From Escherichia coli (GTDB lineage: Bacteria > Pseudomonadota > Gammaproteobacteria > Enterobacterales > Enterobacteriaceae): a DNA stretch of 64,000 nucleotides. Positions 11,510 to 11,935 of this stretch are shown one piece after another. The notes under the pieces are model-generated. The model was not told where the DNA came from. It saw nothing but the letters and a program-made list of their open reading frames with translations, and ran no database searches. The stretch is from NCBI RefSeq assembly GCF_001677475.2, contig NZ_CP015229.1. One strand, written 5' to 3'. Every line of letters starts with the position of its first letter. The first letter of the stretch is position 1. The position numbers and the translations under genes are program-made.

Positions 11510-11635
11510 ATGATGAAACGCCTTATCGTTCTTGTTTTGCTTGCCAGCACGCTGCTCACGGGCTGTAACACCGCTCGCGGTTTCGGCGAAGACATCAAAC
11601 ATCTCGGCAACTCCATCTCTCGCGCTGCCAGCTAA
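11510..11635 (+). CDS. ecnA: Entericidin A lipoprotein (antidote)
   Basis: 41-aa [44 protein letters not shown], lipobox LTGC; not in supplied ORF track (below size cut-off). Confidence 0.85.
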
Positions 11636-11745
11636 TTTTTCTTCTCTTCCGAAAAATCATCAGATTTCCGTCATTTTTGGCGATGTTGTCTATTATTAAT
11701 TTGCTATAGGCAAACATAAATAACATTACCTAAAAGGAAGACGTT

Positions 11746-11892
11746 ATGGTGAAGAAGACAATTGCAGCGATCTTTTCTGTTCTGGTGCTTTCAACAGTAT
11801 TAACTGCCTGCAACACCACGCGTGGCGTTGGTGAAGACATTTCTGATGGCGGTAACGCGATTTCTGGTGCAGCAACGAAAGCGCAGCAATAA
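11746..11892 (+). CDS. ecnB: Entericidin B lipoprotein (bacteriolytic)
   Basis: 48-aa [54 protein letters not shown] aaggaag; paralog of ecnA. Confidence 0.85.
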
Positions 11893-11899
11893 GCAATAA

Positions 11900-11935
11900 C
11901 GGTACGACAGCTGTGTCGTGCCGTTTGTTTTCTCT
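11900..11935 (+). terminator. Terminator after ecnB
   Basis: Hairpin cggtacgacagctgtgtcgtgccg followed by tttgttttct. Confidence 0.6.

Follow-up and report, generated by a model that had tools for sequence, protein, structure and literature searches.

Two short open reading frames (ORFs) lie in tandem on the plus strand of the window, by which we mean the whole 64,000-nt stretch of Escherichia coli contig NZ_CP015229.1 that was analyzed. The first, ecnA (11510-11635), starts with ATG and encodes a 41-aa precursor of the lipoprotein entericidin A, and the second, ecnB (11746-11892), which also starts with ATG, encodes a 48-aa precursor of the lipoprotein entericidin B. A spacer of 110 nt separates the two genes in the ORF listing. 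The pair is flanked on the ecnA side by efp (10892-11458) and on the ecnB side by gdx/sugE (12068-12385), the 105-aa product of which is identical to SugE/Gdx. The order of ORFs in the window is the same as that of the annotated RefSeq neighborhood (yjeJ, epmB, efp, ecnA, ecnB, sugE, blc, ampC, and frdD). A 601-nt query over the region found a match in 5,425 of 5,426 complete E. coli genomes, and in the matches listed, the features were always annotated as efp, ecnA, and ecnB. When a 477-nt query was used, one of the 5,426 genomes was without any match, and three of the matches were on plasmids. The genome of strain UPEC129 (NZ_CP071522.1) matched just 45 nt of this query and appears to be without ecnAB.

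The products of both ORFs were recognized by curated family models. Each covered the full 20-position profile of Pfam PF08085 (Entericidin), with 26.4 bits for EcnA and 30.2 bits for EcnB against a cutoff of 23.3. On the NCBIfam equivalog model for EcnA (NF007319; cutoff, 86), the EcnA ORF scored 114.9 bits over positions 1 to 41 of 41 and the EcnB ORF scored 46.5, and on the model for EcnB (NF007487; cutoff, 94), the EcnB ORF scored 121.9 bits over positions 1 to 48 of 48 and the EcnA ORF scored 44.5. The score drops steeply for either protein when the model is that of its paralogue, which leaves no ambiguity over which is EcnA and which is EcnB. The E values of the plus-strand products on the curated models were 1e-33 and 6e-36. 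Additionally, EcnA is 100% identical to WP_000977757.1, named lipoprotein antitoxin entericidin A in RefSeq, and EcnB is 100% identical to WP_000239596.1, named lipoprotein toxin entericidin B (UniProt P0ADB7). On this sequence evidence, the identification of the two tandem ORFs as the known E. coli entericidin genes ecnA and ecnB is effectively beyond doubt.

The two precursors have the build of exported lipoproteins. EcnA begins with the basic residues MMKR, followed by an 11-residue hydrophobic stretch and the lipobox LTGC, such that the signal peptide comprises residues 1 to 18, the lipidated residue would be Cys19 (codon 11564-11566), and the mature peptide is 23 aa long. EcnB begins with MVKK, followed by a 14-residue hydrophobic stretch and the lipobox LTAC, giving a signal peptide of residues 1 to 21, Cys22 (codon 11809-11811), and a mature peptide of 27 aa. 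Read directly from the sequence, both proteins therefore carry the elements expected of a signal peptidase II (SPase II) lipoprotein, namely, a basic n-region, a hydrophobic h-region, and a lipobox of the form [LVI][ASTVI][GAS]C. In a global alignment, the mature parts share the core CNT(A/T)RG(F/V)GEDI and align on to GN(S/A)IS, because of which we regard the two proteins as paralogues. The mature peptides differ in computed net charge, which is +1 for EcnA and -1 for EcnB. An 11-residue segment of mature EcnA has a helical hydrophobic moment of 0.75, a value reached by 1.3% of shuffled sequences, and is thus significantly amphipathic. For EcnB, amphipathicity was not significant, as 8.9% of shuffles reached the value of this protein.

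These results agree with most of what a first-pass annotation, made from the letters alone, had claimed for the region. Its naming of the genes as ecnA and ecnB is upheld by the alignments to PF08085, NF007319, and NF007487 and by the identity to RefSeq proteins, and the position it gave, between efp and gdx, is that found in the ORFs of the window and in the RefSeq order. Its description of two tandem paralogous lipoprotein ORFs of 41 and 48 aa is correct to the base by the ORF listing and the alignment. The lipoboxes it read as TGC and TAC and the shared GxGEDI core correspond to L-T-G-C ending in Cys19, L-T-A-C ending in Cys22, and CNTxRGxGEDI, respectively. It also had both genes escape its ORF track; at 41 and 48 aa, they are indeed shorter than the default lower limit of 60 aa of the ORF lister used here. 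Simply lowering the limit would not have helped, since at 20 aa or more there are 40 ORFs in 2.4 kb, of which ecnA and ecnB are two, and length alone is unable to single them out. Length-filtered ORF tracks hide real small-protein genes, and ecnA and ecnB make a clean example.

Taken together, the locus is almost certainly best explained as the chromosomal entericidin locus of E. coli, which encodes two tandem, paralogous, very small envelope lipoproteins. It is a locus already known, having been described in 1998 and being annotated in essentially every E. coli genome, and the identification is correct but ordinary.

The two genes differ in their translation signals, which were read directly from the sequence. 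Upstream of ecnB is a strong Shine-Dalgarno sequence, AAGGAAG (11734-11740, plus strand), which ends 5 nt before the ATG. Upstream of ecnA there is only a weak Shine-Dalgarno-like stretch, cAGGtcaGAG (11501-11509, plus strand), directly before the ATG, in which either AGG (11501-11503) or GAG (11507-11509) could serve as the motif. The first-pass statement that both genes have ribosome-binding sites of their own thus stands in full for ecnB, and for ecnA it stands in form, with a site that is weak.

Evidence for expression is similarly divided. Among E. coli proteins of no more than 50 aa, EcnB ranks with those most often detected by mass spectrometry, and in minimal medium it reaches as many as ~70,000 copies per cell (PMC12529367). 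The literature describes accumulation to a high level in stationary phase or in minimal medium. Deletion of clpP raised the level of EcnB more than 100-fold, possibly, in the view of the authors, through RpoS (PMC12529367). Lipid modification at Cys22 is asserted by UniProt curation, as quoted in PMC12529367, and intact EcnB was unseen by top-down mass spectrometry in the same work, which is consistent with lipidation. The small-protein proteomics paper makes no mention of EcnA (PMC12529367). Translation evidence, which the first-pass annotation had named as a check on its reading, therefore exists for EcnB in the form of mass spectrometry (PMC12529367); for EcnA, our literature search found no direct evidence of translation.

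Downstream of ecnB, the terminator scan and folding both identified an intrinsic terminator (11898-11935, plus strand) with a 12-bp stem, a GCTG loop, and the tail TGTTTTCT. Its hairpin (11898-11925) has 12 pairs and a folding energy of -21.4 kcal/mol (z = -6.5), and none of 200 shuffled sequences folded as well. The first-pass annotation was therefore right to place a terminator after ecnB. Variation in this terminator among eight E. coli alleles (see below) falls either in the loop (11911 and 11913) or at a site where pairing is preserved (11907, A to G opposite U). Two copies of GCAATAA form a 7-bp tandem repeat (11886-11899) that spans the ecnB stop codon. Strain indels occur in this repeat, with a gain of 6 bp in one allele (L003) and a loss of 7 bp in another (L006), and the EcnB protein is unchanged by them.

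A second strong hairpin (11462-11495, plus strand) directly follows the stop codon of efp, and 6 nt separate its end from the weak ribosome-binding site of ecnA. Its folding energy is -22.6 kcal/mol (z = -3.3), which none of 200 shuffled sequences equaled, and it was not called by the terminator scan. Because it is without a T-run, it is probably a 3' stabilizer of efp or a partial terminator. In the spacer from ecnA to ecnB, we found no convincing attenuator or terminator: the candidate was just a weak 5-bp match (11669-11682), and the fold of the spacer was marginal (z = -1.96; equaled by 6 of 200 shuffles). A search of Rfam returned no RNA family within 11459-11935.

A scan for sigma-70 promoters found none upstream of either ecnA or ecnB. 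For ecnB, this is consistent with the sigma-38 dependence described below, and as the scan found no promoter for ecnA, this gene may be transcribed by read-through from efp. The only sigma-70-like match of the region (11958-11985) is located just upstream of a guanidine-II (mini-ykkC) riboswitch (RF01068; 12004-12050, plus strand), which scored 49.3 bits (gathering score, 32). The two ACGR-loop hairpins of this element come immediately before gdx/sugE (start at 12068), and it is the riboswitch already known for this guanidinium exporter gene.

The regulation of ecnB has been studied elsewhere, and parts of it can be mapped onto the window. According to PMC5389655, RNA polymerase with sigma-38 transcribes in vitro from the ecnB promoter and the sigma-70 polymerase uses it poorly, and a -10-like pause element is located just past the start site, in a pause region that overlaps an OmpR repressor site. 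The paper also gives the consensus TGcTATA(A/C)T, a substitution to adenine at +5, and pauses at +17/+18. When its description and numbering are transferred to our sequence, the putative sigma-38 promoter core falls at 11690-11710 on the plus strand, comprising a probable -10 element, CTATTAT, upstream C included (11690-11696), a transcription start near 11704, and a candidate -10-like pause element, TGCTATAGG (11702-11710).

A further layer of control is provided by the small RNA MicA, which represses ecnB mRNA in both E. coli and Salmonella (PMC3551931). We verified the MicA sequence, which gave a 100% match between luxS and gshA in E. coli genomes and 83.9 bits on Rfam RF00078. Duplex computation predicted that MicA, through its first 28 nt, pairs with the ecnB mRNA at 11747-11777 (plus strand), a stretch that reaches from the start codon to around the 11th codon. 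The predicted duplex has an energy of -23.2 to -24.2 kcal/mol, and 0.9% of 1,500 random 80-nt windows were as good. Such a duplex would fit repression by a block of translation initiation.

From these elements, a working model of the locus can be proposed. Each precursor would enter the Sec pathway through its signal peptide and, by the general biology of lipoproteins, be cleaved by SPase II and lipidated at Cys19 (EcnA) or Cys22 (EcnB), giving peptides of 23 and 27 aa, respectively, held in the membrane by their lipid. Both peptides would probably be sorted to the outer membrane by the Lol pathway, since the residue at +2 is Asn and not Asp. By the published work, ecnB is expressed from a sigma-38 (RpoS) promoter of its own, which lies in the 110-nt spacer and overlaps the OmpR repressor site; the gene has a strong ribosome-binding site and a terminator to itself, and it is repressed by the envelope-stress small RNA MicA, with predicted pairing across the start codon. 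Finally, according to Bishop et al. (1998), overproduced EcnB is bacteriolytic, probably by way of a membrane-active amphipathic helix, and coexpressed EcnA counteracts it. Of the steps in this model, the role of the pair as toxin and antidote in normal physiology is the least secure.

As summarized in PMC7296081, Bishop et al. (J Mol Biol 280:583, 1998; PMID 9677290) reported from overexpression experiments that EcnB caused bacteriolysis and that EcnA counteracted it in cis. The toxin-antidote label rests on this one study and is contested, having been questioned in later literature because ecnA deletion mutants are viable (PMC7296081); such a mutant is present in the Keio collection, which points against the expectation for a toxin-antitoxin module that the antitoxin gene be indispensable as long as the toxin gene is intact, and an Agrobacterium homologue was neither lytic nor pore forming (PMC7296081). 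The first-pass annotation had called the genes a toxin-antidote pair, which is the standard RefSeq and NCBIfam annotation after Bishop et al. The name holds as annotation, but the function behind it has since come into dispute (PMC7296081).

We also weighed a reading in which EcnB is an abundant stationary-phase lipoprotein of the outer membrane or of vesicles with a non-lethal role in the envelope, there is no true toxin-antitoxin or programmed-cell-death module, and lysis is an artifact of overexpression. EcnB might then serve in stress tolerance, adhesion, or vesicle docking, and EcnA would be a weakly expressed paralogue. We judge the chance of this to fall somewhat short of even. A level of ~70,000 EcnB copies per cell without killing (PMC12529367) and the viability of the ecnA knockout (PMC7296081) both speak for it, as does the weakness of the ecnA ribosome-binding site. 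Relatives point in the same direction, in that Atu8019 of Agrobacterium is surface exposed, found in outer-membrane vesicles, and non-lytic, and the phenotypes described for Xanthomonas and Moraxella are ones of biofilm and adherence (PMC7296081). Control by MicA, sigma-38, and OmpR is likewise typical of envelope-homeostasis genes (PMC5389655 and PMC3551931). This has to be set against the bacteriolysis by EcnB and its rescue by EcnA reported in 1998 and against a secreted EcnB homologue of Enterobacter C6-6 reported to be active against Flavobacterium, both known here through the summary in PMC7296081. RefSeq and NCBIfam have also kept the toxin and antitoxin names.

Put in terms of this locus, it is a serious possibility, though one that we do not favor, that no toxin-antidote system exists here and that EcnB is a highly abundant stationary-phase lipopeptide of the outer membrane or of vesicles, controlled by RpoS and MicA, with a structural or surface-interaction role, accompanied by a barely translated paralogue or modulator, EcnA. 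If this is true, the textbook and RefSeq names of toxin and antitoxin are a misannotation that has been propagated since 1998. The role of this widely conserved family of small lipoproteins is still debated in the literature, a question that the window itself does not raise.

As a test of coding, we aligned the window with seven further E. coli alleles chosen to span the identity range (eight alleles in all). In ecnA, 9 of 10 variable sites were at third codon positions, and the only amino acid change among the eight alleles was T14A in the EcnA signal peptide. The substitution sites of ecnB, four in number, were without exception synonymous and at third positions. We rejected this third-position bias as evidence for the coding strand, as each gene is overlapped by an antisense mirror ORF that shares its wobble positions, one of 41 aa over ecnA (11491-11616, minus strand) and one of 36 aa over ecnB (11730-11840, minus strand). 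Both were open in all eight alleles, and the one on the ecnA side showed several amino acid changes among them. The bias shows constraint without choosing a strand. We assign the genes to the plus strand because their products match the family models and carry signal peptides, ecnB has its Shine-Dalgarno sequence and the terminator on this strand, and peptides of EcnB have been published. The antisense mirror ORFs most likely arise simply from the codons of the sense strand.

That one or both of the ORFs are chance open frames, or that the true genes are the antisense ORFs, can be dismissed as extremely improbable: ecnA and ecnB are indeed just 2 of the 40 ORFs of at least 20 aa, and the antisense frames, open in eight of eight alleles, share wobble positions such that polymorphism alone gives no choice of strand, but the plus-strand products match curated models with the E values given above and have canonical lipoprotein signal peptides, a strong ecnB Shine-Dalgarno sequence, and a plus-strand terminator, the minus strand is without annotation in RefSeq, the ecnA-side antisense ORF takes several amino acid changes, and, for ecnB, peptides observed by mass spectrometry refute the idea outright (PMC12529367).

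The reading of the region as the E. coli entericidin locus can finally be placed beside known systems. Compared with E. coli K-12, the protein sequences, the gene order efp-ecnA-ecnB-sugE-blc-ampC, the 110-nt spacer, and the terminator are all the same, and the DNA is 99.2% identical to that of MG1655 over 477 nt. Other strains differ from the window by just a few synonymous or intergenic single nucleotide polymorphisms, such as those at 11620 and 11670 relative to strain XH990. Judged by its sequence, the locus in the window is the K-12 entericidin locus itself and no mere relative. Members of PF08085 from other Proteobacteria, such as Atu8019 of Agrobacterium, EcnAB of Xanthomonas citri, and EcnB of Enterobacter C6-6, are similar in that they are small lipoproteins with a lipobox and that 20 residues of their mature core are conserved. 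However, some homologues are partnerless single genes and non-lytic, with reported roles in vesicle docking, biofilm, or adherence (PMC7296081).

Among toxin-antitoxin systems, EcnAB resembles hok/sok (type I) and mazEF (type II) in placing a small membrane-active toxin beside an antidote gene. EcnAB is said to stabilize plasmids via post-segregational killing, a finding ascribed to the work of Bishop in 1998. Unlike in hok/sok and mazEF, both components of EcnAB are exported lipoproteins and are paralogous to each other, and the toxin gene has a sigma-38 promoter of its own downstream of the antidote gene. EcnAB also differs from these systems in that it has no antisense-RNA or DNA-binding antitoxin and in that deletion of the antidote is non-lethal (PMC7296081).
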